Of a DNA stretch of 64,000 nucleotides, positions 6,488-63,259 are shown one piece after another. The position numbers and the translations under genes were made by a program. Below the pieces are notes generated by a model that saw nothing but the letters and a program-made list of their open reading frames with translations, was not told where the DNA came from and ran no database searches. Source of the stretch: Escherichia phage vB_EcoM-ZQ1. The stretch lies in the sequence record MW650886.1; one strand, given 5' to 3'. Position 1 is the first letter of the stretch; every line of letters begins with the position of its first letter.

Positions 6488-6823
6488 TTATTTTTGAACT
6501 TGGGCTACAGACATCGCCCAGAGCGGGAGGGTGTGGGGGTCCAGGGCTTCCAGTAGATATTCGACGCGCTCTGACATGATACCTTCAGGGAAGTTTACTT
6601 CTTCTGGTTCGTTGTTGGCCGTCCAACCCAATGTCAGTCCTTCAGCGTGATGGATGATATAAACGAAGTCGTCTGGTTCGTAGTCCTTTTCCATCAGGGC
6701 GAAGAAATCTTCCATTTCTTCGTCGGAGAAGTAGTAGATGCGAGGTACAGAGCCGTCAGCAAAGTGCTCAGCACCCTGGAAGGCAAACATGTCATCGGCG
6801 GTGAAGTTCTTGAGTTGTGTCAT
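6488..6823 (-). CDS. hypothetical early protein (111 aa)
   Basis: ORF with conserved leader ...GGAACTATATC-ATG and upstream early promoter. Confidence 0.55.
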   Translation of the reverse strand: MTQLKNFTADDMFAFQGAEHFADGSVPRIYYFSDEEMEDFFALMEKDYEPDDFVYIIHHAEGLTLGWTANNEPEEVNFPEGIMSERVEYLLEALDPHTLPLWAMSVAQVQK

Positions 6824-6871
6824 GATATAGTTCCTGCTTTTCAAGTTGGTGTCGTACTGCTTATGGAATGA

Positions 6872-6900
6872 AGTATAGGAAAGGATATTGAAGAAGTAAA
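6872..6900 (-). promoter_or_regulatory. T4-type early promoter (-35 TTTACT, -10 TATACT)
   Basis: TTTACT - 16 bp - TATACT on minus strand; same cassette as at 39977 and 50705. Confidence 0.5.
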
Positions 6901-6914
6901 GGGGCGAAAGCCCC
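6901..6914 (-). terminator. stem-loop terminator
   Basis: ggggcgaaagcccc hairpin flanked by T-rich sequence. Confidence 0.45.
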
Positions 6915-6929
6915 TTTTATTGAATTATT

Positions 6930-20907: not shown

Positions 20908-21278
20908 AACGTACCCCCGACAGAGATCAAGAACTCTTCTTGCATGGTCTTGACCGGGTGGTGGTTGCGGGTTTCGAACATGAAGCCCCAGCCACCGTCG
21001 GCGACGTTACCAAAGGTCTTGACACCAAAGGACTTCGTCCCGTTGGAGCAGGAATAGATGTCCAGGACGTATGGGCTACCCTGATTGTCGATCCCACGAT
21101 TCACGTCGTCTGATACACAGCGCTCAATCATCTTCCCGTTCTTATACAGAACGAGGTCTTGACCATACGCCTTGAAAGCATAAACACCGTTGGTAGACAC
21201 TCCGGTGATGACAGGAGGGGCGGAAACAGCAGCAAAGGAAGCGCCTAGCAGGGCAACAGCGAGGATTAACTTTTTCAT
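20904..21278 (-). CDS. secreted protein (124 aa)
   Basis: conserved leader ...GACTATATC-ATG; signal peptide MKKLILAVALLGASFAAVSA. Confidence 0.5.
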   Translation of the reverse strand: MKKLILAVALLGASFAAVSAPPVITGVSTNGVYAFKAYGQDLVLYKNGKMIERCVSDDVNRGIDNQGSPYVLDIYSCSNGTKSFGVKTFGNVADGGWGFMFETRNHHPVKTMQEEFLISVGGTL

Positions 21279-21302
21279 GATATAGTCTCTTGGTTTCAAA
21301 TG

Positions 21303-21324
21303 GGCGGGGTATGATTACCCCGCC
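21303..21324 (-). terminator. stem-loop terminator (repeat copy)
   Basis: ggcggggta-tgat-taccccgcc hairpin; near-identical copy at 21863. Confidence 0.45.
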
Positions 21325-21330
21325 GTGGGT

Positions 21331-21837
21331 TTATAGGGTAACAAGTGATACGGTAAAAACCATCGTCCCGTCTGTTGCCATTTTTCTTGAAACTGGTATG
21401 ACGCGAGGCTGGCAGAATATCCATTCTTTCTCCATGGACGCCAAGTCCAGCATATCCATTTCTGATTCATCGCCTTTGTTCACAAATTTTTCTAGAGAAC
21501 CATAGACATTAAGCCCCTCCGGGAGTCTGTTTCGATGTTTGTAACAAATGCGGGCAACAGCTTTGGTTCCGTACGATTTAGAAAATTTTTTGGCCACATG
21601 CTTCAGTTCACTGAAGCTAAGACAAGAATCCCATGTCTGGAACATGTCGCCTCGTTCAAACATCATCTCTAAACGCGCAACGTCCTCTTTAGGCAGCCCG
21701 CGATAAAGTGTGGTCGTCTGTGGTTCGCGCAATTCTTGCACCAGATCACGGACGGCAGGGGAAACAGTACCGGGGCGCATGATGTGGGACTTATCATGGA
21801 CGAGGTAAAATAAATCTTGAATTTGTTGATCAGTCAT
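21331..21837 (-). CDS. hypothetical protein (168 aa)
   Basis: conserved leader ...GGAACTATATC-ATG. Confidence 0.5.
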   Translation of the reverse strand: MTDQQIQDLFYLVHDKSHIMRPGTVSPAVRDLVQELREPQTTTLYRGLPKEDVARLEMMFERGDMFQTWDSCLSFSELKHVAKKFSKSYGTKAVARICYKHRNRLPEGLNVYGSLEKFVNKGDESEMDMLDLASMEKEWIFCQPRVIPVSRKMATDGTMVFTVSLVTL

Positions 21838-21862
21838 GATATAGTTCCTGCATTTCAAATAG

Positions 21863-21884
21863 ACGGGGTAATCATACCCCGCCC
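21863..21884 (-). terminator. stem-loop terminator (repeat copy)
   Basis: cggggta-atca-taccccg hairpin. Confidence 0.45.
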
Positions 21885-21896
21885 AAAGTTATAGAA

Positions 21897-22136: not shown

Positions 22137-22187
22137 GATATAATCTTACCTTTCAACCCGGTGAACCCATCGTTCGCCAGTTATTGA

Positions 22188-22216
22188 ATAATAGGACATT
22201 CCTTAGAGGAAGTAAA
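22188..22216 (-). promoter_or_regulatory. T4-type early promoter (-35 GTTTAC, -10 TATTAT)
   Basis: GGTTTACTT - 17 bp - TATTAT. Confidence 0.5.
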
Positions 22217-22228
22217 CCCCTAAAAGTA

Positions 22229-22254
22229 AAAATCCCCAACGTTTGTTGGGGATT
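22229..22254 (-). terminator. stem-loop terminator (42-bp repeat copy 1)
   Basis: aaatccccaac-gttt-gttggggattt hairpin. Confidence 0.5.
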
Positions 22255-22269
22255 TAATAAAAGTTATGC

Positions 22270-22494: not shown

Positions 22495-22543
22495 AATATA
22501 TACCTTCTTTCAATGAACGGGAACGCCCCGCTCTATGAATTCA

Positions 22544-22572
22544 ATAATACGCATTTACATTATAGAAGTAAA
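22544..22572 (-). promoter_or_regulatory. T4-type early promoter (-35 GTTTAC, -10 TATTAT)
   Basis: GGTTTACTT - 17 bp - TATTAT. Confidence 0.5.
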
Positions 22573-22584
22573 CCCCTAAAAGTA

Positions 22585-22610
22585 AAAATCCCCAACGTTT
22601 GTTGGGGACT
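22585..22610 (-). terminator. stem-loop terminator (42-bp repeat copy 2)
   Basis: ccccaac-gttt-gttgggg hairpin. Confidence 0.5.
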
Positions 22611-22614
22611 TCTG

Positions 22615-28292: not shown

Positions 28293-29513
28293 TTATTCAG
28301 GTTTCTTCAAACGGTCCAGCAAATTGACGGAACCACGTTTGAGCACGACTTCATCACAGCGCTTTTTGTATTCCCCACCGCCGTCATATCCAACCTTCCC
28401 GCGCGGTTTTTTACCTTGCTGTATGGCCTCTACACAACGAGTATATTTCGACAATTCACAAAAGTGGTTTTCTAATTGTTGAACATTCATACACTGATCC
28501 CAAGGCTCTTCCGCAGACCAAAATTCTTCCCTGTTATACCCAAGAGGGCCATAAACCGCGTCCTGATTGTCCCGCAACCAGAAGATGCATTCTTCATGCG
28601 TCATGCCATCTTTGTCCTGGAACATCAGGTCGATCCCTGCGCGACAGCCTGGTCCAGCAACCGTGAAGTGGTTCTCACTGAAAGGATATTCAGGAATGTA
28701 AGTGAAGTCAACCCATATCTGATAGGCCAGGAATGGGCCAAGCCCTTCGATGTCGTCATACATGCGCTGGTATACTTCCAAAGGAGTACCAAGGCGCAGC
28801 AGGTCATGGAAATAATTTGGATACTTGTTGACGAATGCCTTCAGGGAGCGGATGACACGCATTGGCATGTACGGTTCCCAACCTTCGATGGTGTAGAAGT
28901 CCGGCTCTGCTTCGGCTATCGCCTTGGCTTCTTTATAATCCATGTTCTGGGTTGAACCGTCTTTACAGATCAGATTCACCATCATCCCACCGAAGCGCTG
29001 CTCCTTGTGGTTGACAACCATCTCAGGGAAAGCCAGGCATTGCTTCAGGCCGCCCGTGTTGAAGGCATTGGTGAATACCTTACCACCGTCGGCCTCGAAC
29101 TTCTGAAGTCGTTCGCGGGTTGCATCGAGGTTGATCTCGGCGAATTCTTTGATCGTCATCGCGCCGCCGATAGCCTGGATTGGATCCCAGAGGTTGAACA
29201 TGCGGAACAACACGCAGTTGAACATCTTGTCGGCCATACCCAGAGCATCATTCTTGGCGATGTTGTTGATCAGGTTGAGAGACTGCCTGTCGTGCTCTCT
29301 CCGGACGTTACAGAATTTAACCTGGCGTAGTATGGGATTATCAGTCCAAGGAGCAGGAAGGCGCTGGACGTCCTTCTTGACGTGGATCTGATAACGATCG
29401 CGCATCCATTCGTAAGACAGGCGGGTATGGGTCGGGCTGAGAACCGGTTTGGCCGACTTTATCTTTTCTTCACGGACACCGCAGTACGGGACGTCCAGGG
29501 CTTTATCTTTCAT
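28293..29513 (-). CDS. hypothetical protein (406 aa)
   Basis: long ORF; family not recognised by eye. Confidence 0.55.
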   Translation of the reverse strand: MKDKALDVPYCGVREEKIKSAKPVLSPTHTRLSYEWMRDRYQIHVKKDVQRLPAPWTDNPILRQVKFCNVRREHDRQSLNLINNIAKNDALGMADKMFNCVLFRMFNLWDPIQAIGGAMTIKEFAEINLDATRERLQKFEADGGKVFTNAFNTGGLKQCLAFPEMVVNHKEQRFGGMMVNLICKDGSTQNMDYKEAKAIAEAEPDFYTIEGWEPYMPMRVIRSLKAFVNKYPNYFHDLLRLGTPLEVYQRMYDDIEGLGPFLAYQIWVDFTYIPEYPFSENHFTVAGPGCRAGIDLMFQDKDGMTHEECIFWLRDNQDAVYGPLGYNREEFWSAEEPWDQCMNVQQLENHFCELSKYTRCVEAIQQGKKPRGKVGYDGGGEYKKRCDEVVLKRGSVNLLDRLKKPE

Positions 29514-29581
29514 GGTATCCTCTTAGAATACGAAAACAGAGGCCATTATAGCCTCTGTTGTTTAGTGAATAACCGTATATC

Positions 29582-30454
29582 TTAATCGATACGGGTCAGT
29601 TGGGTGATAGATGATTGCACTGGGCTGGCCACATAGATACGGACGTTGGCTTTCCATTCACCCCAGATCAACGGTAGAGTTGGGAAGTTGTCTTCATTGA
29701 AAACAAACACGGGAATGTAGCTCTCGACTGTTTCGCCAGAGAACGCCTGGAAGCCCATCTTGGTGTATCCCATGATCTCGTCAATAAAATCGAACGGCGC
29801 GTAGGCAACACCAGCATGTTCGTTGCATCCGAGTCGACCTGGGGTAGCCGTGCCTGTCAGAATGATTTCGGTGATCTGGCGCTTAGGCTCGGTGGTCAAC
29901 ATATCAGAGAAGTCAGGCTCTTTGAAGGTTGCCATGTTCTTCAGGAACTTGCCAGCCGGGTATTCTTTACCGTCGACGGTGATGGTGTCTACTACTTTGA
30001 TGCACGCCTGAGGGAATTCCCCTTCGATGCGCAGACTTTCGCGTGGGAAGCCTTTGTTGTAGTAGTAATCCAGTGCTGGCACAACTTCACCTTCATTACG
30101 GATGAACTTGCTCATGTTAGAGGCATACACGCGCTGTAGGCATTCGTCACCGTCGAAACCAGCAATATGAGCCACGCCGTCGTTGACTGTTGTGATGTCA
30201 CCCTGGGCATCCATGATCTGGCGCATAATGTCTTTGATGTCGACAACAACGGGTTCTTTCAGGACTCGCGGAGATGCAGTGAACTCAATTTTCACCTCGT
30301 GGTCGAAATACGCCGCTTCCAGCAGTTCACGGGTTTCTTCCAGCACCAGTTTCGCCTGATTGCGGATCTTACCAAAGTCGGGCGATGTGACGTCGCCCTT
30401 TGCATTACCGAAAGCCAGATTCAGATTCACGTTCTTGGAAAATGTAGTTGTCAT
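29582..30454 (-). CDS. hypothetical protein (290 aa)
   Basis: ORF; weak EExxELxxA MazG-like motif only. Confidence 0.5.
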   Translation of the reverse strand: MTTTFSKNVNLNLAFGNAKGDVTSPDFGKIRNQAKLVLEETRELLEAAYFDHEVKIEFTASPRVLKEPVVVDIKDIMRQIMDAQGDITTVNDGVAHIAGFDGDECLQRVYASNMSKFIRNEGEVVPALDYYYNKGFPRESLRIEGEFPQACIKVVDTITVDGKEYPAGKFLKNMATFKEPDFSDMLTTEPKRQITEIILTGTATPGRLGCNEHAGVAYAPFDFIDEIMGYTKMGFQAFSGETVESYIPVFVFNEDNFPTLPLIWGEWKANVRIYVASPVQSSITQLTRID

Positions 30455-30470
30455 GATTTAGCGACTCCAG

Positions 30471-30935
30471 TTATTCGCTTTTTGCCTTCGTAGGCCGGAT
30501 GATGTATTTTGGAACCAGTTTCCATTCAGGAACCTGATCGTGTTTAACCACTTTAATGCGAGACATATCGGCTGCTTCAGTGACCTGCTCAGGATGAATG
30601 ACCTTCACCATGTTCCACTGCTCCAGCAGCTTGATGATGCGGTTCATCCTCAGGACATCTTCGCGGTTAAATCCGTTGTAATGCCCGTCCAGCATAAATA
30701 GATGCTTAAAGTGGACGATATAATACTTACCACACTTATGAAGAATATGGCAAGTCTGATACAGAGTATTCGGCTCTTGGCGCGTGTTTACCCCAATTCG
30801 ACTCAGTGTTTCCTTGATCCCCAGGAATATACCTGGCCGATCTTGGTTCAATTGAACTTCAACCATACAATCAACGATGCTGGCCTCATCGTTGACTGCT
30901 GAAATATTCAATATGTCTAGCGTATTACGCGCCAT
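30471..30935 (-). CDS. regA: translational repressor RegA-like
   Basis: LYQTCHILHKCGKYYIVHFK and EWKLVPKY match T4 RegA hallmarks; position next to gene 62 as in T4. Confidence 0.7.
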   Translation of the reverse strand: MARNTLDILNISAVNDEASIVDCMVEVQLNQDRPGIFLGIKETLSRIGVNTRQEPNTLYQTCHILHKCGKYYIVHFKHLFMLDGHYNGFNREDVLRMNRIIKLLEQWNMVKVIHPEQVTEAADMSRIKVVKHDQVPEWKLVPKYIIRPTKAKSE

Positions 30936-30964
30936 GACTCATTCCCCTTTTACAATAGTTTGAA

Positions 30965-31420
30965 CTATTTAGCCTTGCGCGGTTTCGCTTTGGCGTTCAG
31001 CTCAGTGCGTCTCATCTTCTCGCGTATCTCGGCCAGGACTTCCTTCGGCAAGAAACGGACGTACTCCGATGCCTTCTCCATGCTGATGTAGAAGTACTCT
31101 GAGAGTAACTTCACGTCAGGATCAATCGGACCTTTCTTAGACCATTTGTCGTAGCGTTTCCGAGCCGGAATGGTGTAAAAGGCATATGACCATTGCATCC
31201 ATGGAGTGATAGCATGTAGCTTATTCATCTGTTGCGCAGCCACTAGAGTGTCTTTGCTCTGAGCTAAACCACGCCGCGTCATAAACGGGTCGAATCCTTT
31301 CAACACTTCTGGGTCATCAGACCGCAAAAGGTTTTCTTTGCTGCTGTTCAGAGCAGCCAGGTAATCGAACAATCCAAGGGCGGCCATAATATCACTTCCA
31401 CTTGATGTTGAGCATGACAT
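30965..31420 (-). CDS. 62: clamp-loader small subunit, gp62-like
   Basis: IPARKRYDKWSK resembles T4 gp62 VPRGKRYGKWAK; synteny 45-44-62-regA; alternative start at 31387. Confidence 0.6.
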   Translation of the reverse strand: MSCSTSSGSDIMAALGLFDYLAALNSSKENLLRSDDPEVLKGFDPFMTRRGLAQSKDTLVAAQQMNKLHAITPWMQWSYAFYTIPARKRYDKWSKKGPIDPDVKLLSEYFYISMEKASEYVRFLPKEVLAEIREKMRRTELNAKAKPRKAK

Positions 31421-32381
31421 TGGTCAGGAAAAACACAGCATGCAGCCAGACATCGCCGACTTGACGGTGTTCAATCTGAGACTGACCACATACGCATACC
31501 AGATCCGGGATAGACTCATTCTGAACCAACATTTGCTTCTCTTTATCCTGTGGTACACAGAACTGGAAGAAGCGGGAATAGAAGTCTTCAGTGATATAGT
31601 TCTGGTTGTCGGTCACCCACTGCTTCATCCCAGCCCAGTCATTATCCTTCAACATATTCACCAACATACCCATATCGGCCGATTTTAACACAGCCAGTGC
31701 ACGTTCGTCGATCTTGCCGTAAGTGGTGACGTTATCCTGTAGAACACCCATGATGCGGCGGTTATCAGGGAAATGGCGCTTGACAATAGCAGCCAACACA
31801 GGAGGGTCATACTCAACACCTTCGCAGCGAAGGATTTCAGCACAGCGGCGCATGAACTGAAGTTTTACCTCATCAGCCTCAGCCTCATTCCAGATAAAGT
31901 CGATTTCACGGCAACGAGAGCGCAGAGGTTCGTTCACACGTTGCTTGGCGTTGGTGGTCAGGATGAATGAACAGTTCTTGGAGACCTTCTCCACAATACC
32001 CTTCAGCGACTCCTGTGCCGCCATAGACAGACGCTCTACTTCGTCGAGGATAACGACTTTGCGACCACCGAATACGCTCACACCAGTAGAGTACTGAATC
32101 ACGCGGTCACGGATAACGTCGATGCTGTTGTCCAGGGATGCGTTGATCATCAGTGGTTGCTTACAACCGATTTCATTACACACGGCCAGGGCGGAGGTAG
32201 TCTTGCCAGTACCAGGCTGAGGGGAGTAGAACAGCATAGACGGGATGTTGCCGTTGCCGCTGGTGATGTAGCCATGGATTTTAGCGCGGACGTCTTGAGG
32301 GATGATAATCTCGTCCAGGTTGTCAGGGCGGTACTTGTTTTCCCATGCGTACTGGTCGGAAACGATAGTAATATTAGACAT
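31392..32381 (-). CDS. 44: clamp-loader ATPase, gp44 / RFC-like
   Basis: RFC box WENKYRP, Walker A PQPGTGKTT, DEVER, SRC motif LRSRCREI. Confidence 0.85.
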   Translation of the reverse strand: MSNITIVSDQYAWENKYRPDNLDEIIIPQDVRAKIHGYITSGNGNIPSMLFYSPQPGTGKTTSALAVCNEIGCKQPLMINASLDNSIDVIRDRVIQYSTGVSVFGGRKVVILDEVERLSMAAQESLKGIVEKVSKNCSFILTTNAKQRVNEPLRSRCREIDFIWNEAEADEVKLQFMRRCAEILRCEGVEYDPPVLAAIVKRHFPDNRRIMGVLQDNVTTYGKIDERALAVLKSADMGMLVNMLKDNDWAGMKQWVTDNQNYITEDFYSRFFQFCVPQDKEKQMLVQNESIPDLVCVCGQSQIEHRQVGDVWLHAVFFLTNVMLNIKWK

Positions 32382-32461
32382 TTCAGCCTCGTGTAGAAGA
32401 ATCATTTCAAATAGGCGGGGAACGCCCCGCCCACACATTATAGCATCAGGCTGGAGATTGA

Positions 32462-33130
32462 TTACTCAATCTGTGCGCCGACGAAGTAATTGATCGTCGC
32501 GTCGGATGATTGGAAGTTCACCATCTGTAGATCAGCACAGGCACGCAAAGTGTAGTTGCCTTCGATCATTTTCAGGTTGGCAACATCCAGCGGCATTACG
32601 AAGTCCGGCAGCGCGGTTTCGCCCAGCTCAACAGTGTAGTTGTTGGAGTTGTCCAGGGTAGTAGTGGTTGCAACCAGGCGAGTTTTGCCACCCTGAGCAA
32701 CCAGGCGCACAGTCTTATGTCCGAGGGTAGAACAGGCGCGGGTCAGTTCTTTCATCTTCTCTGGAGTGATGATCGCTTCAAAGTCGACAGACGGCAGTTC
32801 AATAGTATCAGCCGGGACAACCGTGAGTTCTTTAGCAGAACGCCAGAATTGCAGCTGAGAACTTTCGCCCTTCAACAGGATGTAGTCCTGATGGAATTCG
32901 GCTTTGGCACCTTTAAAGGAAGGTAGGCGCTGGATAGCCAGAAGTTTGGTCAGGTCCAGAATCGGGAACTCAAACGGGAAGTCTTCTTCGATCTGCGCCA
33001 CGGCGATCACAGTAGAAGAATCATTAATACTGCGCAGCATCTTGCCCGGTGTCAGAACGATAGATGGGTTGATGGTCTCAAAGTTGGCCAGCAACTGAAG
33101 TGTACGTTCGGAGAGAGTGATCTCTTGCAT
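32462..33130 (-). CDS. 45: sliding clamp, gp45-like
   Basis: size 222 aa, N-terminal LQLLANFETINPSIVL resembles T4 gp45, synteny. Confidence 0.7.
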   Translation of the reverse strand: MQEITLSERTLQLLANFETINPSIVLTPGKMLRSINDSSTVIAVAQIEEDFPFEFPILDLTKLLAIQRLPSFKGAKAEFHQDYILLKGESSQLQFWRSAKELTVVPADTIELPSVDFEAIITPEKMKELTRACSTLGHKTVRLVAQGGKTRLVATTTTLDNSNNYTVELGETALPDFVMPLDVANLKMIEGNYTLRACADLQMVNFQSSDATINYFVGAQIE

Positions 33131-33239
33131 TTGTATGTATCCTCAAAATATAGTGGGGGTTCAAGTCATGTTTGACGCAATCTAGTATCGCTGTGTTTTG
33201 CTTATAGAACAAGTGGCAAATTGCGCTACGCGTTATTAA

Positions 33240-33257
33240 TAAATGCCTTCGGCATTT
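33240..33257. other. perfect hairpin aaatgcc-ttcg-ggcattt in noncoding region
   Basis: 7-bp stem, tetraloop. Confidence 0.5.
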
Positions 33258-33262
33258 ATGGA

Positions 33263-33309
33263 CTTTATTAAAGATAATAACCTTTATTAAAGATAATAAT
33301 CTTTATTAA
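33263..33309. repeat. three iteron-like direct repeats (CTTTATTAAAGATAATAA period 18 bp)
   Basis: two full copies plus partial third in the largest noncoding gap. Confidence 0.7.
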
Positions 33310-33342
33310 TCCTATTCGCTTCGCTCATAAAACAAATACTCG

Positions 33343-33372
33343 TTGTTCGCTAACGCTCACAACTCGTATAAT
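33343..33372 (+). promoter_or_regulatory. sigma70-like promoter (TTGTTC - 18 - TATAAT)
   Basis: plus-strand -35/-10 pair upstream of plus-strand gene 33492..33863. Confidence 0.35.
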
Positions 33373-33491
33373 ACCACGCCATTGTTCAACAAGAAAGCAG
33401 TTTTTATTCAACAGCAAAATTAATTTATTTGGTCTAAACATGCACGCGAAATAATATGTATGTCATGTTAACCAACATACGAGAGTAATAT

Positions 33492-33863
33492 ATGAAACAG
33501 TTCGTAGGATTATACGCAGTTGGGTGTAGTAAACCAGACGCCAAGCTCACCACAGATCAATTTACCACAGGCACCCCAGTTTATCTGACACAGCTGGCGT
33601 CAGACAAGAACTTACCATCGGAGCCGCGATTTGTCCCTCTGGGGTTGATGACAGGTCTGAAAGTTGGTCTGTATGTCGGTGTGGTGACGTTTGAAAATGG
33701 CGTCGAAGCGAAAGTTCTGCCATTCAAATTGGGCAGCGAAGAAATGCTGAAGGATACGATCAGTGAACACCTGAACTCACAATGTCTGGCTTCTCTGGAC
33801 AAATTGTTCGGTGTAGTAACTGATGAAGGCGAGGCCACCCCCGCCTATGTGAATCAAGATTAA
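33492..33863 (+). CDS. hypothetical protein (123 aa)
   Basis: plus-strand ORF with GAGAG RBS. Confidence 0.45.
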   Translation: MKQFVGLYAVGCSKPDAKLTTDQFTTGTPVYLTQLASDKNLPSEPRFVPLGLMTGLKVGLYVGVVTFENGVEAKVLPFKLGSEEMLKDTISEHLNSQCLASLDKLFGVVTDEGEATPAYVNQD

Positions 33864-39644: not shown

Positions 39645-39926
39645 TTAGAACAAATGCTCGCCTTCCACATGGTATGCTAACACGCCGTCAGAACATTCAA
39701 AATACATGTTATCATATTCCCACAGAGCGGTGATTTCTTCACCCTGGCAAACCACCGAAAACTTCGGCTGGCTGGCCTTAACTGGAAATTTTTCAGGGGA
39801 AGAGATTGGGGTGAATTTGGCATTTCTGACGGCCATACCAACAAATTGCTGCAATGTTACTTTGTAACGAGAGTGGGTGATAGTGCCAGCATTCAGGGCT
39901 TCGATCAATTGCGCTTTAGTTGTCAT
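39645..39926 (-). CDS. hypothetical early protein (93 aa)
   Basis: conserved leader ...GGAACTATATC-ATG and early promoter. Confidence 0.5.
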   Translation of the reverse strand: MTTKAQLIEALNAGTITHSRYKVTLQQFVGMAVRNAKFTPISSPEKFPVKASQPKFSVVCQGEEITALWEYDNMYFECSDGVLAYHVEGEHLF

Positions 39927-39976
39927 GATATAGTTCCTTCATTTCAGAGTCAGTGTTGTGCTGCTTATGGAATGAA

Positions 39977-40009
39977 GTATACGGGGTTTATTGAAGAAGT
40001 AAACCCCGT
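39977..40009 (-). promoter_or_regulatory. T4-type early promoter within a 10-bp-stem hairpin (PeSL-like)
   Basis: TTTACT - 16 bp - TATACT; -35 lies in hairpin acggggttta / taaaccccgt. Confidence 0.5.
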
Positions 40010-40028
40010 ATTCAACTTTTTATTGAAT

Positions 40029-40273: not shown

Positions 40274-40717
40274 TCAGTTGTTAACGCGGAATGCCGCCGG
40301 ATACCCACCTGGATGCCCTTCTCCGGTCACGAAGACCTCGTACCGGGCACCTTTAACCAAACCGGGCAAATTGCCTGAGTCGAGTAGATATCGGATTTTA
40401 TCCATAGTCTCCATCCAGGACTTAGCAGGTTCAGCTTCAGCCTCCCCACGGTTGATTTTGATCACACCCTCTGAATAATACTTCCCACTGTCCTTCATGT
40501 AGTACAGCTTGACGTCGATAAACTGTGGGGATGGAACTTCTGTCCAACCCTCATCGTTCAAATCCTGGCGATCATTGTCGAAACTCTGAAAATCAACATC
40601 ACCGCATGCCAGGCGATAATCTTTGAATTTACGGAAACCTTCCGCCTTGTCCCCAACGGAGCTACGGAAGAACTGTTTCTTGGCGGGACTAATGAAAATG
40701 AAATTCTTGTCACACAT
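40274..40717 (-). CDS. hypothetical protein (147 aa)
   Basis: conserved leader ...GGATCTATATC-ATG. Confidence 0.5.
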   Translation of the reverse strand: MCDKNFIFISPAKKQFFRSSVGDKAEGFRKFKDYRLACGDVDFQSFDNDRQDLNDEGWTEVPSPQFIDVKLYYMKDSGKYYSEGVIKINRGEAEAEPAKSWMETMDKIRYLLDSGNLPGLVKGARYEVFVTGEGHPGGYPAAFRVNN

Positions 40718-48474: not shown

Positions 48475-50274
48475 GTGAGGATATTTATTATGCCATTCCC
48501 CGATAAAAATTGTTCATGCTGCCACAAACCGTTCACCCCAACCAGGAAGGCTGCGTTGTATTGTAGTGACGAATGTAAATCATTCATGCTGGGAACGATG
48601 AAACGCAATCCGAGTTTGTTGGATAACATCCCGACGACCGAAACCGAATGCCGCTCTTGGGTTGATAGTAAACTCAGGAAGAAAGATGGTTCGTTGAACT
48701 ACAAACTTATCTCTCATCCCCTACTCACGGCCCATACTGGGGTTGATGTTGTTGGATACGTGGTGTCACACAACGACCTATTAGAAGAACCACAAGCGAT
48801 AACTGCTTGGCTGTACGATATTCCGAAGTCGCAGTGTGTCACTTGCGGTGCTGACGTTGGCTTAGAAATGGAAGCCCAACCACCCAGATACAAAAAGTTT
48901 TGTTCCGAAGAATGTCAACGAGAATCGATGAAGGCGGGAGGCTCAGAACGGACCAACCTAGAAAGCGCCATATCAGAGAAATATGGCGTTTCTAGCACAT
49001 TCCAGCTGGAAGAAGTAAAACAAAAGTCACGGGAAACTGTCCTTAAGAAATATGGGGTCGACCACCCTATGAAGTCTGATGTTATAAAGGACAGAGTGGC
49101 TGCTTCCGTCATGGAACGCTATGGCGTATCACACGTCATGAAAATGCCAGAAGTGAGGGAAAGGGTGATTGAGACTTGGAGGAAGATCTATGGTGTGGAT
49201 CATCCAATGTTCCTCAATTCCATTATAGAAAAGAGAAAGAAAACATGCGTCTTAAAATATGGGGTTGATTATCCGTTGAAGGTAAAGGCTATATGGGATA
49301 GAAGCCAGGTCAATACCAGGATCATTTCAAAAGAAAAATACGGCGTACCTCACTATTTCTCTTCTGAAGAATATAGGAACTCTTTCACGTACCCCAGCAG
49401 CCAAAGCCAAACACAGCCAGAAATAGAAATATGTTCATATCTGGAGTCATTGGGCGTTATATGCGAATCTGGTAATTTCTCCATCCTCAGAGGTAAAATG
49501 TTCGACGGAAGGGTGACCACACGCCAGATAGACATATACTGCCCAGAACATAAGTTGGCAATAGAATTTAACGGCTTGTACTGGCATACAGAGAAACATC
49601 GATACAAAGACTACCATCTTGAAAAGACCATGTACTGTGAAGCCCAGGGTGTTCAATTAATCCATATCTGGGAAGATGAGTGGCGTGACAAACGGGAAGT
49701 GGTTAAATCACTCCTTAAAGCAAAATTGGGGATAGGGAAACCATTGTCATACGCTCGCCAACATACCATTTTAGAAGGCTCCTATAGGACGTCCAAGGAC
49801 TTTCTCGACCGATTCCATATACAAGGTGGTGTGGTGGCGACAGATTATATACACCTTGTAGACAAAACTGGGAATATCCAGGCGGTGATGTTGTTTACCA
49901 AACGAGTGCATGGTATTGAATTGGTGAGATTTGCTTCTAACAATTGTCATGGCGCATTCTCACGCTTGCTGAAATATTATATCGCTCGACATCGGGGTGA
50001 GACAGTATATTCTTTTGGTGATCGTTGTGTTGTCAGTCGTCTGAAAAATGTTTACCTGAATAACGGATTTGTTGAAAAGGAAATCCTTCCCCCTGATTAC
50101 AAATATGTGACTCCGGACTATGGCTCACGTATACACAAATTCAATTTCAGGAAAGAGAAATTCCTTAAACTTGGATACGATGTAGAAGGTAAAACAGAGG
50201 ATATGCTGGCGATAGAAGCCGGGTTGGGGCGTATCTGGGGGTGTGGTCTTATCCGGTATGAACTGGAAAACTAA
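48475..50274 (+). CDS. free-standing homing-endonuclease-like protein (paralog of 41023..42495)
   Basis: plus-strand gene inside minus-strand tail module; same Zn-ribbon, YGV..PMK repeat and Vsr/DUF559-like domain. Confidence 0.65.
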   Translation: MRIFIMPFPDKNCSCCHKPFTPTRKAALYCSDECKSFMLGTMKRNPSLLDNIPTTETECRSWVDSKLRKKDGSLNYKLISHPLLTAHTGVDVVGYVVSHNDLLEEPQAITAWLYDIPKSQCVTCGADVGLEMEAQPPRYKKFCSEECQRESMKAGGSERTNLESAISEKYGVSSTFQLEEVKQKSRETVLKKYGVDHPMKSDVIKDRVAASVMERYGVSHVMKMPEVRERVIETWRKIYGVDHPMFLNSIIEKRKKTCVLKYGVDYPLKVKAIWDRSQVNTRIISKEKYGVPHYFSSEEYRNSFTYPSSQSQTQPEIEICSYLESLGVICESGNFSILRGKMFDGRVTTRQIDIYCPEHKLAIEFNGLYWHTEKHRYKDYHLEKTMYCEAQGVQLIHIWEDEWRDKREVVKSLLKAKLGIGKPLSYARQHTILEGSYRTSKDFLDRFHIQGGVVATDYIHLVDKTGNIQAVMLFTKRVHGIELVRFASNNCHGAFSRLLKYYIARHRGETVYSFGDRCVVSRLKNVYLNNGFVEKEILPPDYKYVTPDYGSRIHKFNFRKEKFLKLGYDVEGKTEDMLAIEAGLGRIWGCGLIRYELEN

Positions 50275-50299: not shown

Positions 50300-50656
50300 C
50301 TATTTGCGAATGCTAACCTGAGCATAATACACATAATAATCACCGTGGGCACGGAAGCTGGTGAGGTGGAAGGTGACGAGGTGGCTCCCGAAAGCTACAA
50401 CTTTGGTATCTGGGGAGCATAAATCATTAGCTAGTTCACCCAGAACCTTACCACAAAACTCCCCAACAATAGCGTTAAATCTGTCAATGTGTGGACTGGT
50501 CACCGTCATTGGACCAACATCTGCACAGTAGATCCCTTTTATCATCTTTCCCTGGCTGTCGCGTACTGGCTTTGCAGGCTGGTAAGGATTGATGCGGCGT
50601 TTCAGGTTACAGAGGCCGATTTCTTTCAGGATAGCGTTAATTTCGGTCTTGGTCAT
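50300..50656 (-). CDS. hypothetical early protein (118 aa)
   Basis: conserved leader ...GGAACTATATC-ATG and early promoter. Confidence 0.5.
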   Translation of the reverse strand: MTKTEINAILKEIGLCNLKRRINPYQPAKPVRDSQGKMIKGIYCADVGPMTVTSPHIDRFNAIVGEFCGKVLGELANDLCSPDTKVVAFGSHLVTFHLTSFRAHGDYYVYYAQVSIRK

Positions 50657-50704
50657 GATATAGTTCCTTCGTTTCAAGTTGGTGTCGTACTGCTTATGTT
50701 TAGA

Positions 50705-50733
50705 ATTATACGTGAGTTATTGAAGAAGTAAAG
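50705..50733 (-). promoter_or_regulatory. T4-type early promoter (-35 TTTACT, -10 TATAAT)
   Basis: TTTACT - 16 bp - TATAAT. Confidence 0.5.
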
Positions 50734-50767
50734 TAATTCAATAAAATAATCTGGGAAAAATTTAAAA

Positions 50768-50783
50768 CCCCGCCGAAGCGGGG
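50768..50783 (-). terminator. stem-loop terminator (identical to 42557..42572)
   Basis: ccccgccgaagcgggg hairpin. Confidence 0.55.
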
Positions 50784-50788
50784 TCTTG

Positions 50789-58983: not shown

Positions 58984-61900
58984 TTATGCCAGAGCAATCA
59001 AACGGAAATCTTTGAATGACGGCGGTGCTATGCGGTTGCCTCTGACCAGCAGGCGGATCTTCAGGCCAACGAAAGGATTGGTGCTCTCTACAGTCTTGTC
59101 ATACTCATATTCGAAGAATGTAGAACCGTCATTGACCAGAGGGGATGTCGGTGTCACAGTTTCCCATGCCACATTATCCATCTCCTGACCTGCGCGCAGC
59201 AGTTTAACCTGCACAGTCATTGAAGACTGAGAAGGTAGCATCGCGCCGAAGTATTGCTTCAGAGTGGTGCAAGGGTTATCGAATCCGATATCCTTGGTCA
59301 CATAGCTGAACACATCTTCAAACGGATCCACACCGTAGGTGTTGAAGATGATAGTGAAATCATCACCGTCGATCATTGGAGCCGTGTAGACATTACTCTC
59401 GTTGCGAGTCATGGTTGCACGAACCTGGAAGTCGCCCACCTGACGATAGATACCTTCCGTCGGCAGAGACACGTCCGTATCGGATTCGAACTCAACCCAA
59501 TCAGAGAATGAGTTGGAGGTCGCATCGCGATAGCGGTATTCCAGTTTCAACACAGATCCTTCTAGGGCTGAATTGGTGACGCTTGCGTAGAACATGTCTA
59601 CCAAGTAGTTGCCTAGGAAAGAAGCCGCTTCGCCACCAATCTGACCGTCGGAGTCGGCGTTGGAACTCAGAACGAATTTGAACGTCGTGAACGTCGCATC
59701 AGTCACAGTGTGTTGGGCGTTCAGCTGCTCAGGAGTGAAACCGCAACCACCCGTCAACCCAGAAAGAGTAACACTTTCACCCGCAGTCAGGCCATGCCCC
59801 GGAGCGTACACAGTAACAGTTGAAGAACCGTTGACACATTTCACGGTGTTCAGACCCAGAGGGCGGATCTTCGGACCGACTTTAGCATCGAAGGTCACGA
59901 TGTTTGAACCAGCGGAGAAGTTACAGCGATATACACGGAACTTCATATCGGCAGTCTGGTTTGGAGTCCAGGTCGTACCATTTGAAGATGTGAAGAACAC
60001 GCCAGTGTACGGCTGTTTGGCAATGAACTCGTTGGTCAGCAAGTTCTTCTTACCCATCTCTGCGATGTATGCGTTGTAGTCCTGAGTGTTGGCCAAGAGA
60101 ACAATCGCGAACTCAGTCTGCGCCTGCAGATACACAGGATAATCAAACTTGAACATCGTTGGCACAGAAGAGTCTGTGGAGGTGGAAACTTCTGATGGAT
60201 TCAGAGTCTTACGAGTGACGACAGTCGTCGCTGGCAGACCATTGCTCATCTCACGGATTTCCAGAGTGATCGGGATATCACGGGACTTGGTGGAGAAGAA
60301 GACTTCAATCCCTTCGATGTATTCGCCGCCGATATTGGTGGCAACCATGAAGGACTGGGCGATAGGATCTTTCCACTTCGCGACTTCAACCGTCTCTGTT
60401 TTGTTTTCCGTAGACTTGGTCGCAGTGTATCCCAGGACGCGGGTGTTGACATAAGTCTTCTGGATGCCCTGTTTCTTTCCGAAGGACTTATGAACAGCCT
60501 CGGCATTGGTCAGGGTATCATCAGCAGACTTACTGTCCACAGGACTGTCAGTCAGACGGAAGACGTTGTCACCCGTGTTAAACTTGATAGTCTCGTTCTG
60601 AGGAACCGCAAACACACCTTTGATGTTACCGTTGGCATCAGTGTTCAACGCACCACCCAGTACACCACCGTTTGGGGTACAGTACGCGCTCACATCACGC
60701 CCAGAGAAGAACGGATACACACGAGTGAACGGACGCAGCCCTGTGGCTTCGAAGTTGATGTTCGTTTTGCGCATGTATGGGATAACCTGCGTTTCAACGA
60801 TCTGCTCGCCAGTCAGGGTAGTGGTCGTCTTGTCGGTGTACGTGTACGTGGTGACGTCACGGGTAGACACAGTCGTGCGGTAGCGATAGCCCCACCATAC
60901 ACCACCTGCACCATGCGGTTCCCACACACGCTCAGACACGGACACAGTACGCCATGTGCCATACACAGAACCTTCTTTGATCGCACCACGGGTGTTGATC
61001 GTTTCGTTGATCACCCGTGGAGTAACATAGTAGTTCTCAAACCAGTAATCAGTAGTTGGGTTCAGCTTCAAGAAACCTTCCCAGTTGAACACCGCATACG
61101 GGTTCACGTTGATGGTCGTGGTTGCATAGTCCTGGCGGACAGAGATCTCACGGGTGTAGTTGCATACAACCATGCCATCCTGAACGTTGTTCCAACCGAC
61201 TGGCGTCAGGTCAATCGCGTTCTGCTGAACAAACGGGCGTAGGCGACCATTGTCGGTGTCGATTGAACCCACCCAGTCTGCAGACAAATCGTCGATCAGA
61301 CGGAAGTCTTTGAACGGGTCTGCTGCGATACCGTTCTTGAAGCGCGGGTTGCCAGTAATTGGATCGAACACCTGTTGTGACATCGCCGAGGATTCCAGCT
61401 GAGACAGTGAGGTGTAATATTCGACATTCGAGATACGGGTCTCCAGTTTACCGATATCACGCATCGTGTAGCGGCGGTTGTCGATAGTACGAATCTGGAT
61501 GTCGTCAATGTTGGCCGTGTATGGTGGGATCATCAATTCATACAGACGCATACCGTTGTCTGGGATCGCAGGGGAAGCCAGGTTGTTGGAACTCACACCA
61601 CGAGCAACGTTGAACACACCGTTGTCTGCCAGATACACAGCATCAATACGAGGCAGATAGTACTCTGCATCTAGGATGATCGCGGTGTTCGGGCGAACCA
61701 TGTCCGTGTCAGACGCTCCGCTGGTGATCTTGGGACGGAAGTCCAGACTGTCGGCCAACCCATACACAGTACCAGAACTGGATGAAACATAGTTCGGGAT
61801 GTCTGGGTAGTTGATGGACGAATAGGAGTCCGCTGTAAAGAAATCACCAGAGCTGTGAGCGAAATACTGATACACCACCGTGAACGTCCCTGAAATGGCT

Positions 61901-63259
61901 CCTGTGGACGATATGAGGTTAGAAAGGTAGTATGCAGCATCACGCTGACCGCCGTCCAGAGTGAAGTTAGAGGTGACGTCAGCGCCATTTGCGTTCTTCA
62001 CGCTGATCAGCTTGTAACCATCATGGTTCCCAAGTTGTGCGCTGGCCGCCGCAGTAAACGTCACAGTCTCGGTGGCTTCGGTAACAGTCTTGGTCTTGAT
62101 CGTCGCTGTGGTGCGGACCATCAATGCCAACAGGTTGATAGACTGGTTGGCGTACCCCGCGCCCAGGGAAATCTGCAGTGCTGAACCAACCGGAGTACCA
62201 GCCAGGGACAGTCCCGAAGAGATATCAAACTGAGCTGCAGTGCCATCTGCCTTCGCTGCGGAGTACAGTGAAAACTCAGGGCTGAAGCTGTAACCCAGAG
62301 GAGCGGAGATTGAGCCTGCACCAGCGGCGTTCAACGTGATCTTGTTTGACCGCAGGACGGTGTAGTTGATGTCGATGGTGCCTGTAGGTGCTAGGGTCTT
62401 CACACCAAATACAGGCAGAGGGAAGATCAGGTCAATTGCTGAACTCTGGCTGAACTGATTGGACTCCAGTTCGCAGGAGAACATCGTTGTACCGCTTTCT
62501 TCATAAGCGACTTTGGTCACCGTACCCATGTCCCCAGTCACAACCAGGTCGCGCATATACAGACGGAATTCAGTACCGGAGCGCTCTGCCGAAATCAGCA
62601 GGGCGGTGGCCTGCACATCGCTGGATGCGTTCAGGAACTTGTAGCGGATTGTGCGGGAGACAACCGGAACCCCTTTGGAGTTCTTGGACACCAGATAGTT
62701 GCCAGTCGAAACAGCCACAGGGTTGTTGTTCAGGATATCAGTGTCACGGGCTTTGTCAATTATGACCAGCTCTTCGCCGAGGTTTTCGATACGACGACCA
62801 CGAACGTAGGATATCCCTGGCTTCATAACCGCCACGAATTTGCTTTCATCACCACCTTCAGCCGGAGTGTAAACGCCGCCGTTGTTGTTCTGTTTCAGAT
62901 GTTCGCGCAGGTCGATCTGGTGAGTAGAGACGTTGTAGATGTTCACGCAGGTCGATCTGGTGAGTAGAGACGTTGTAATCCCCGTTGGTCTCATAAGTGC
63001 GCTGCGCCATACTGTCTTCGAGGATGTTGTAGGTGGACTGGGTCACCATGGACTGAATGCGACCGTCTTTCACCTTCGCCAGTTCAACGAAGTCGGCCAC
63101 TTCTTCATCATAACCGTAGCGAGACAACACGAGGTCGACGCGCAGGCGATGCGCACCAGGGGCTTTAGAGTTCGGAGTACCCTGAGCATTGGAGAACAGA
63201 CTTTCATCTTCTGCTTCGGTTCGTCGGAGTTGTAGGTCCTTGTATGGCGCCTGCTTCAT
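58984..63259 (-). pseudogene. large virion structural gene (tail fibre/baseplate-like, ~1411 aa if intact) split by a frameshifting 40-bp tandem duplication
   Basis: ORFs 62858..63259 and 58984..62994 overlap in different frames; both encode YNVSTHQIDLREHL across the duplicated 40-mer. Confidence 0.6.
62898..62977 (-). repeat. 40-bp tandem duplication, 1 mismatch
   Basis: gatgttcgcgcaggtcgatctggtgagtagagacgttgta followed by the same with g to a at position 8. Confidence 0.85.

Follow-up and report, generated by a model that had tools for sequence, protein, structure and literature searches.

A RegA ortholog with a conserved 23-residue N-terminal extension and separate, putative PeSL-like early promoter/leader cassettes in Escherichia phage vB_EcoM-ZQ1

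The minus-strand open reading frame at 30471-30935 of Escherichia phage vB_EcoM-ZQ1 (MW650886.1), which lies in the 64,000-nucleotide stretch of DNA analyzed here (the window), raises the question of whether it encodes a homolog of the T4 translational repressor RegA, at which of two in-frame ATG codons the protein begins, and whether the similar translation-initiation regions repeated elsewhere in the window are its operators. Taking the evidence as a whole, we consider it probable, at roughly 80%, that this frame encodes a RegA ortholog which would start at the upstream ATG and repress translation much as T4 RegA does, and that the conserved leaders would belong to a separate set of cassettes resembling the PeSL (promoter-early stem-loop) cassettes of T4-like phages, reportedly described by Arbiol in 2010.

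The ORF list gave a long form of 154 amino acids with an ATG start and with the stop codon inside the span. The initial annotation had called the product a RegA homolog and had proposed alignment to the RegA family as a check. The Pfam search matched PF01818 (Bacteriophage translational regulator) at 118.5 bits and E=2e-34 (cut-off 25), with residues 24-146 of the frame aligned to profile positions 1-121 of 122, and phmmer against the PDB returned T4 RegA (1REG, E=4e-26) as the sole match, with query residues 25-146 on chain residues 2-120. The AlphaFold2 model of the 154-residue protein (mean pLDDT 90.5, with a 29-sequence alignment as input) had 1reg_Y and 1reg_X as its top Foldseek matches (E=1e-11, target-normalised TM 0.90), and the runner-up was at E=0.5. 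Pfam, PDB and Foldseek together placed the RegA core domain at residues 24-146 (30498-30866, minus strand), equivalent to T4 RegA residues 1-120; the T4 and ZQ1 proteins are 42% identical in our alignment A1 and share the HMM family and the predicted fold. In T4 RegA, T18, R21 and W81 are required for RNA binding, and K14, T18, R21 and W81 form the helix-loop RNA-binding groove with F106 and R91 nearby (PMC3014915). ZQ1 RegA shares the helix-A residues T18 and R21 and the loop residue W81 (as T43, R46 and W107, which are invariant across the 29 sequences of alignment A1), whereas the RNA-binding-implicated residues K14, F106 and R91 are not kept in this alignment (G39, H132 and V118, respectively). 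Beyond T4 RegA, the ZQ1 protein carries 23 N-terminal residues, with two predicted short helices, and about 8 C-terminal residues.

The minus strand carries most genes of the window, including gp45, gp44, gp62 and regA in this order (from ORFs, Pfam and the annotation of Escherichia phage LHE287), and the same order was found in the 10 relatives that were fetched. The gp45 gene is at 32462-33130 (minus), and the clamp-loader subunit gene gp62 (30965-31420, minus; PF16790, E=1.7e-10, and LHE287 annotation) adjoins regA upstream. [quoted passage not shown] 3 legend); however, the regA start is 29 nt past the gp62 stop in ZQ1, whereas the gap is 1 nt in T4-type RB14 (UAAAAUG). The protein is 100% identical to that of the regA CDS annotated in LHE287, and the Kuttervirus and Taipeivirus orthologs are 87-90% identical to it across all 154 residues. 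At the DNA level, Escherichia phages A221 and AV101 match the 10-kb stretch around regA at 97-98% identity, Shigella phage Ag3 matches it at 93%, and Kuttervirus genomes (CBA120, for example) do so at about 78%; the window is about 93-99% (mostly 96-99%) identical to LHE287, several indels excepted. Judged by sequence, predicted fold and synteny, which bear out the homology first proposed, the frame at 30471-30935 is the Ackermannviridae (Agtrevirus-type, ViI-like) ortholog of the T4 translational repressor RegA; as a gene it is already known, already annotated and an ordinary ortholog. Directly downstream of regA, 28293-30454 (minus) encodes a MazG-like pyrophosphatase (phrog_2144) together with a 5-hmdU DNA kinase (PF18723), the latter being a thymidine-hypermodification function, and we infer a link of the MazG-like protein to the same pathway. 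In T4 this downstream position is occupied by gene 43.

The start codon is a choice between the upstream ATG at 30935 and an internal ATG (Met24; 30864-30866, minus), which corresponds to the T4 RegA start codon and lies directly 3' of a 13-bp hairpin. According to the Pfam and PDB alignments, the extension relative to T4 RegA is 23 residues long (codons 1-23, 30867-30935, minus; peptide MARNTLDILNISAVNDEASIVDC) and it is kept within the lineage; the text of the initial annotation, which put the start about 23 codons upstream of the T4-equivalent Met, was correct in this, and its title, which spoke of about 30 aa, was not. A Shine-Dalgarno sequence for the upstream ATG, AAAGGGGA, is present at 30943-30950 (minus), with GGGG 8 nt ahead of the ATG, and its anti-SD duplex was calculated at -8.1 kcal/mol against a median of -6.25 for the gene starts of the window. 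For the internal ATG, the same calculation yielded -2.0 kcal/mol, the median over all AUGs being -3.1, and no Shine-Dalgarno at functional spacing, which agrees with the earlier statement that the best ribosome-binding site supports the upstream start. All relatives have GGAG, AAGGAG or GGGG 7-8 nt ahead of the upstream ATG.

Comparison of 17 distinct 154-aa orthologs gave 3/0/13 variable sites at codon positions 1/2/3 of extension codons 2-23 (22 sites each) and 25/11/92 in the RegA core (of 131 each), and 24 positions were variable in the 30 nt upstream of the regA ATG. About 16 protein clusters, reaching as low as 54% identity, retain the extension peptide M(A/P/SSP)RNTL(D/E)(I/V)L...AV...I(V/I)(D/E)C. 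Five more distant clusters (P0004, P0006, P0007, P0012 and P0013) have Leu instead of Met at the T4-equivalent start, the codon being CTT in one contig that resembles Salmonella phage CRW-SP2 and TTG in another; with CTT at position 24, initiation there is not possible in that relative. In the AlphaFold2 model, the extension forms helices at residues 5-10 (pLDDT 85) and 17-22 (pLDDT 75). Together, the codon-position pattern, the kept peptide, the Leu at the T4 start, the Shine-Dalgarno sequence and the predicted helices show that translation begins at the ATG at 30935 and includes the 23 extra residues, and the internal ATG is probably not an initiation site. The proposal of a start upstream of the T4-equivalent Met has thus held, through the third-position variation, the Leu in place of T4 Met1 and the Shine-Dalgarno sequence in every relative.

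The hairpin inside the extension-coding region (30867-30899, minus) was obtained by MFE folding, with arms GCAGUCAACGAUG and CAUCGUUGAUUGU and loop AGGCCAG, and the 146-nt region around it folded with z=-3.6. Eight close orthologs fold it at -12 to -20 kcal/mol, four distant relatives have a weaker form, and two have lost it. Across 14 sequences, 86% of cells were paired and 3 pairs had compensatory changes (for example, A-U to G-C in Taipeivirus), values which 2-3 of 500 shuffles matched. Pairing was still about 60% when the partner strand was slid by ±3 nt, so part of the hairpin signal is accounted for by codon-level self-complementarity (GAU/AUC, GUC/GAC, AAC/GUU). Five consecutive codons in and around the hairpin loop had no synonymous variation among the 17 orthologs.

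These observations bear on other readings of the RegA product. If RegA were made in two forms, one long (154 aa) and one short and T4-like (131 aa), with the hairpin aiding or gating initiation at AUG24, the retention of AUG24 in close relatives would be accounted for, as would a 13-bp hairpin with a GAGG-containing loop and compensatory changes whose end is one nucleotide 5' of this codon; but AUG24 is without a Shine-Dalgarno at functional spacing, Leu (CTT/TTG) stands at codon 24 in five clade members, the hairpin is weak or lost in two of the relatives (L046 and L048), and protein conservation alone also predicts a Met there, and we hold the production of two isoforms to be very unlikely. 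Still less can be said for a short T4-like protein only, made from AUG24, with the upstream 69 nt as an untranslated leader that is open by chance. The Pfam profile and T4 RegA do begin at Met24, and regA of Erwinia phage Bue1 (L050, MG973030.1) is annotated from the internal Met as a short form of 141 aa; yet Bue1 itself has MSSPRNTLDIL... in frame upstream of the annotated start, preceded by GGAG, the extension has a coding-type substitution pattern with its peptide kept to 54% identity, a non-start codon occupies position 24 in some relatives, and the strong Shine-Dalgarno is at the upstream ATG only, and we give this reading almost no credence. That the protein would be an endoribonuclease, a reading suggested by the GenBank name 'endoribonuclease translational repressor regA', is hardly conceivable too: such product names in several records are all that speaks for it, whereas the family and structure matches are to RegA alone and the T4 review has RegA as the ribosome competitor and RegB as the endoribonuclease (PMC3014915). 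The name looks like an annotation-pipeline conflation of RegA with RegB.

The long form, which we prefer, was also set against the wider RegA family. HMMER, run exhaustively over 1.84 billion cluster representatives, identified 898 clusters of the RegA family (E<=1e-3), and in the best 150 of these 898 the median number of residues ahead of the T4 Met1 position was 13, with at least 18 residues in 43/150 and 2 or fewer in 4/150, lengths that rest on the start predictions of gene callers. On these predicted starts, N-terminal extensions are the norm in the wider RegA family and T4 is a short outlier. The bulk of the family consists of cyanophage and uncultured-phage homologs of 130-170 aa, up to about 50% identical to ZQ1 RegA, some of which have 18-30 N-terminal residues as ZQ1 RegA does. 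However, the extension motif RNTLD(I/V)L...AV...I(V/I)DC is limited to the Ackermannviridae-like clade, and the other extensions are loosely similar.

As to function, the ZQ1 protein presumably binds RNA and represses translation, by homology only. From what holds in T4 and RB69, regA would be expressed from the 45-44-62-regA replication-gene transcript, and the RegA monomer would attach to unstructured A/U-rich RNA located at a start codon or just 5' of one, in some of the early and middle mRNAs, its own probably among them, where competition with the 30S subunit would help to shut off early protein synthesis. In T4, regA and gene 62 are RegA targets. Gene 44 is a target of T4 RegA and genes 44 and 45 are targets of RB69 RegA; the sites are the SELEX consensus AAAAUUGUUAUGUAA in T4 and UAA repeats in RB69, and there was no structure of a RegA-RNA complex by 2010 (PMC3014915). 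The literature search found annotation-level mentions of Ackermannviridae RegA only and no experiment on it, no description of a RegA N-terminal extension, and no transcriptome of an Ackermannviridae phage. The 29-nt gp62-regA intergenic leader (30936-30964, minus), aligned with the leaders of 13 relatives, is A/U-rich and contains UAA and AUUGU: UAA triplets recur (four in Kuttervirus), and AUUGU(U) just 5' of the Shine-Dalgarno recurs down to 61% identity. This leader looks more like known RegA sites than the cassette leaders described below do, and it is a candidate autogenous RegA site.

The initial annotation had further described a genome full of near-identical translation-initiation regions and had taken them for obvious RegA operators. 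In the window, GGAACTATATC with at most 2 mismatches had 25 matches against 12.8 expected, a number reached in 0/100 shuffles, and directly abutting an ATG it occurred 7 times in 64 kb against about 0.2 expected (our own estimate, 12.8/64): exactly at 6823, 21837, 39926 and 50656, with 1 mismatch at 40717, and with 2 mismatches at 21278 and 17923. Of about 68 gene starts, roughly 7-9 carry the extended leader; the leaders are real and enriched, and "genome full of" was an overstatement. The shorter context ATC ahead of the start codon was found at 17/68 predicted gene starts (25%) versus 2.9% of all ATGs, and A at -3 and T at -2 were favored in early and late genes alike, the ATC-ATG starts including late structural genes. 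The GGAACTATATC motif was absent from the start regions of regA, 44, 45 and 62. A search of IMG/VR with the exact leader pattern returned 14 stretches, all in Ackermannviridae genomes, and an Rfam scan of the whole window at gathering thresholds returned nothing.

On sequence grounds, these leaders are the 3' ends of predicted PeSL-like early promoter/5'UTR cassettes. At 6823, 39926 and 50656 we found an element of about 100 nt composed of ATTCAATAAAA and a stem-loop, then TTTACTTCTTCAATA and TATA(C/A)T, and, downstream of this predicted promoter, CATAAGCAGTACGACACCAAC-TTGAAA-N4-GGAACTATATC-ATG. In the first copy (6821-6925, minus) the upstream stem-loop GGGGCTTTCGCCCC abuts the -35 element; the second (39924-40028, minus) is followed by a 93-aa ORF that is missing from LHE287; and the third (50654-50745, minus) has TTTACT-N16-TATAAT, a 45-nt unstructured 5'UTR and TTGAAACGAAGGAACTATATC-ATG. 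The copy at 6823 and those of bering and Kamild have a stem-loop upstream of the promoter (GGGGC...GCCCC, directly adjoining TTTACT), while the copy at 50656 has a terminator hairpin at 50758-50784, with a gap before the -35, and the copy at 39926 has no evident stem-loop. A spacer of 16-17 nt separates TTTACT from TATACT/TATAAT in each of the three full cassettes and likewise in five other genera, as sequence matches only, and the consensus of T4-type early promoters is TTTACW-N17-TAYWAT (PMC4122927). The 3' end of the cassette is the Shine-Dalgarno plus the downstream start codon (GAAGGAACTATATC-ATG), and the cassette leader RNA is UUGAAACGAAGGAACUAUAUCAUGAC. In the copies at 21278, 21837 and 17923, a GC hairpin is followed by TTTGAAA and the same SD-to-ATG segment; hairpin-type leaders were delimited at 21835-21885 (minus; GC hairpin, then TATTTGAAATGCAGGAACTATATC-ATG) and at 21276-21326 (minus), the latter being the second copy of a 50-nt repeat (repeat family D3). 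A sigma-70 promoter made of TTGAAA and TATATC was rejected, with a spacing of only about 9 nt. We also observed, in the gp45-gp44 gap (32382-32425, minus), a GC hairpin GGCGGGGCGTTCCCCGCC followed by TATTTGAAATG; here the hairpin and TTTGAAA make up the module known from the leader family, but the SD-to-ATG segment differs.

The 5'UTRs of the full cassettes were less structured than their own shuffles: 72-nt stretches of 5'UTR and first codons folded at -2 to -2.7 kcal/mol, and 175-200 of 200 shuffles folded at least equally well. The cassette was matched in 282 Ackermannviridae records and occupied 2-4 places in nearly all complete genomes among the matches listed. Kuttervirus cassettes had up to 96-99% identity over 81-84 nt, and the neighboring DNA about 78%. 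In an alignment of eight sequences from five genera, the longest invariant block was the 15-nt -35 region TTTACTTCTTCAATA, and TTGAAA and GAAGGAACTA were likewise invariant. The 15 nt of TTTACTTCTTCAATA exceed the length that a -35 hexamer needs. The genes behind the cassettes code for small proteins whose function is unknown and for one protein that matches an RNA polymerase ADP-ribosylase family, and RNA polymerase ADP-ribosylation is an early function in T4. Two segments of the window that are missing from the 98%-identical LHE287 are associated with these elements, their ends coinciding exactly with cassette repeats: 21325-21833, a gene module bounded by the 50-nt direct repeat D3 (hairpin plus leader), and 39656-39929, containing the 93-aa ORF that starts at the cassette ATG; this association comprises two cases in one genome pair, and the indels have the pattern that would be expected for cassette-mediated module exchange.

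The PeSL architecture of T4-like phages has been described in the T4, PST, KVP40, nt-1, RB49 and phi1 lineages (Comeau 2014, PMC4122927), and five putative T4-like early promoters were reported in LIMEstone1 (PMC3296691). The ZQ1 cassettes resemble PeSL in the succession of predicted T4-type early promoter, Shine-Dalgarno and start codon, with a stem-loop ahead of it in some copies, in the several near-identical copies per genome, and in their location ahead of small genes of unknown function and at indel borders between close relatives. They differ in that they are found in Ackermannviridae, in the long, kept, unstructured 45-nt 5'UTR, in the very high cross-genus conservation, and in the second type with a GC hairpin inside the 5'UTR. 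The cassettes border gene-sized indels and would drive small early genes, and we suppose that selection favoring strong transcription and translation, together with recombination between copies, would suffice for the similarity of the leaders.

Could the conserved GGAACUAUAUC-AUG leaders nevertheless be RegA operators, with the cassette-driven early genes as a sequence-defined regulon and the extension possibly aiding specificity? Like T4 RegA sites, they are unstructured and A-rich and include the AUG, they head early-type genes, GAAGGAACTA and TTGAAA are invariant across five genera while Kuttervirus and Taipeivirus RegA are 87-90% identical, and RegA sites are known for lacking a consensus. 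The conservation of GAAGGAACTA across genera is stronger than a Shine-Dalgarno alone requires and could point to a trans-acting reader, possibly RegA. However, the leaders are unlike the known RegA sites (AAAAUUGUUAUGUAA, the natural sites of T4, the UAA repeats, the 5' poly(A) tract), the motif is missing at the starts of regA, 44, 45 and 62, the ATC-ATG context is common to late structural genes, the cassette promoter is more conserved than the translation-initiation region, and recombination at the cassettes would already account for the near-identity. We therefore judge operators of this kind to be unlikely; the claim that they are obvious found no support, the leaders being parts of promoter cassettes whose motif is absent at regA, 44, 45 and 62. 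A more elaborate version, in which the extension would retune RegA to UUGAAA-N4-GGAACUAUAUC-AUG and thus create a sequence-defined regulon unlike the consensus-poor one of T4, with the in-ORF hairpin and the UAA/AUUGU leader being autoregulatory, we regard as more doubtful still.

Several other features of the window were recorded alongside. CTAAATA has 11 copies against 3.7 expected, all on the minus strand (7674, 8260, 30966, 35394, 38591, 44894, 48435, 53072, 57306, 57346 and 63829), most of them 24-43 nt upstream of gene starts, including those of the tail-tube gene and another T4-type structural gene, and the motif probably represents the core of ZQ1's late (gp55-type) promoter. A late promoter for regA was considered and rejected; the CTAAATA copy there, 31 nt upstream of the ATG, overlaps the stop of gp62 and reads CTAAGTA in the closest relatives, so it was not taken as conserved. 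In a sigma-70/terminator scan of 29400-33600, promoter-like sites were no commoner than in shuffles. A 594-aa ORF on the opposite strand beside the tail-tube gene (48490-50274, plus), matches DUF7487 (E=1e-24) and gives weak restriction-endonuclease-like hits; it is mostly missing from LHE287 and may be an insertion of the homing-endonuclease type. A direct repeat of 73 nt (84% identity; 22183-22255 and 22539-22611, plus) contains the hairpin AAAAATCCCCAACGTTTGTTGGGGATTT and resembles a bidirectional terminator flanked by conserved sequence, and a tandem 40-nt duplication (93% identity) at 62892-62971 is located at the 5' end of a 1336-aa ORF (58984-62994, minus).

For the annotation of regA in this lineage, our reading means that the long start is correct, that short-form records such as that of Bue1 are probably mis-annotated, and that the product name 'endoribonuclease' is unsupported for RegA. 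For the family, the picture of RegA as a 122-aa protein, drawn from Pfam and T4, under-represents its members. Further, the conserved early cassettes offer a defined RNA for probing RegA specificity.
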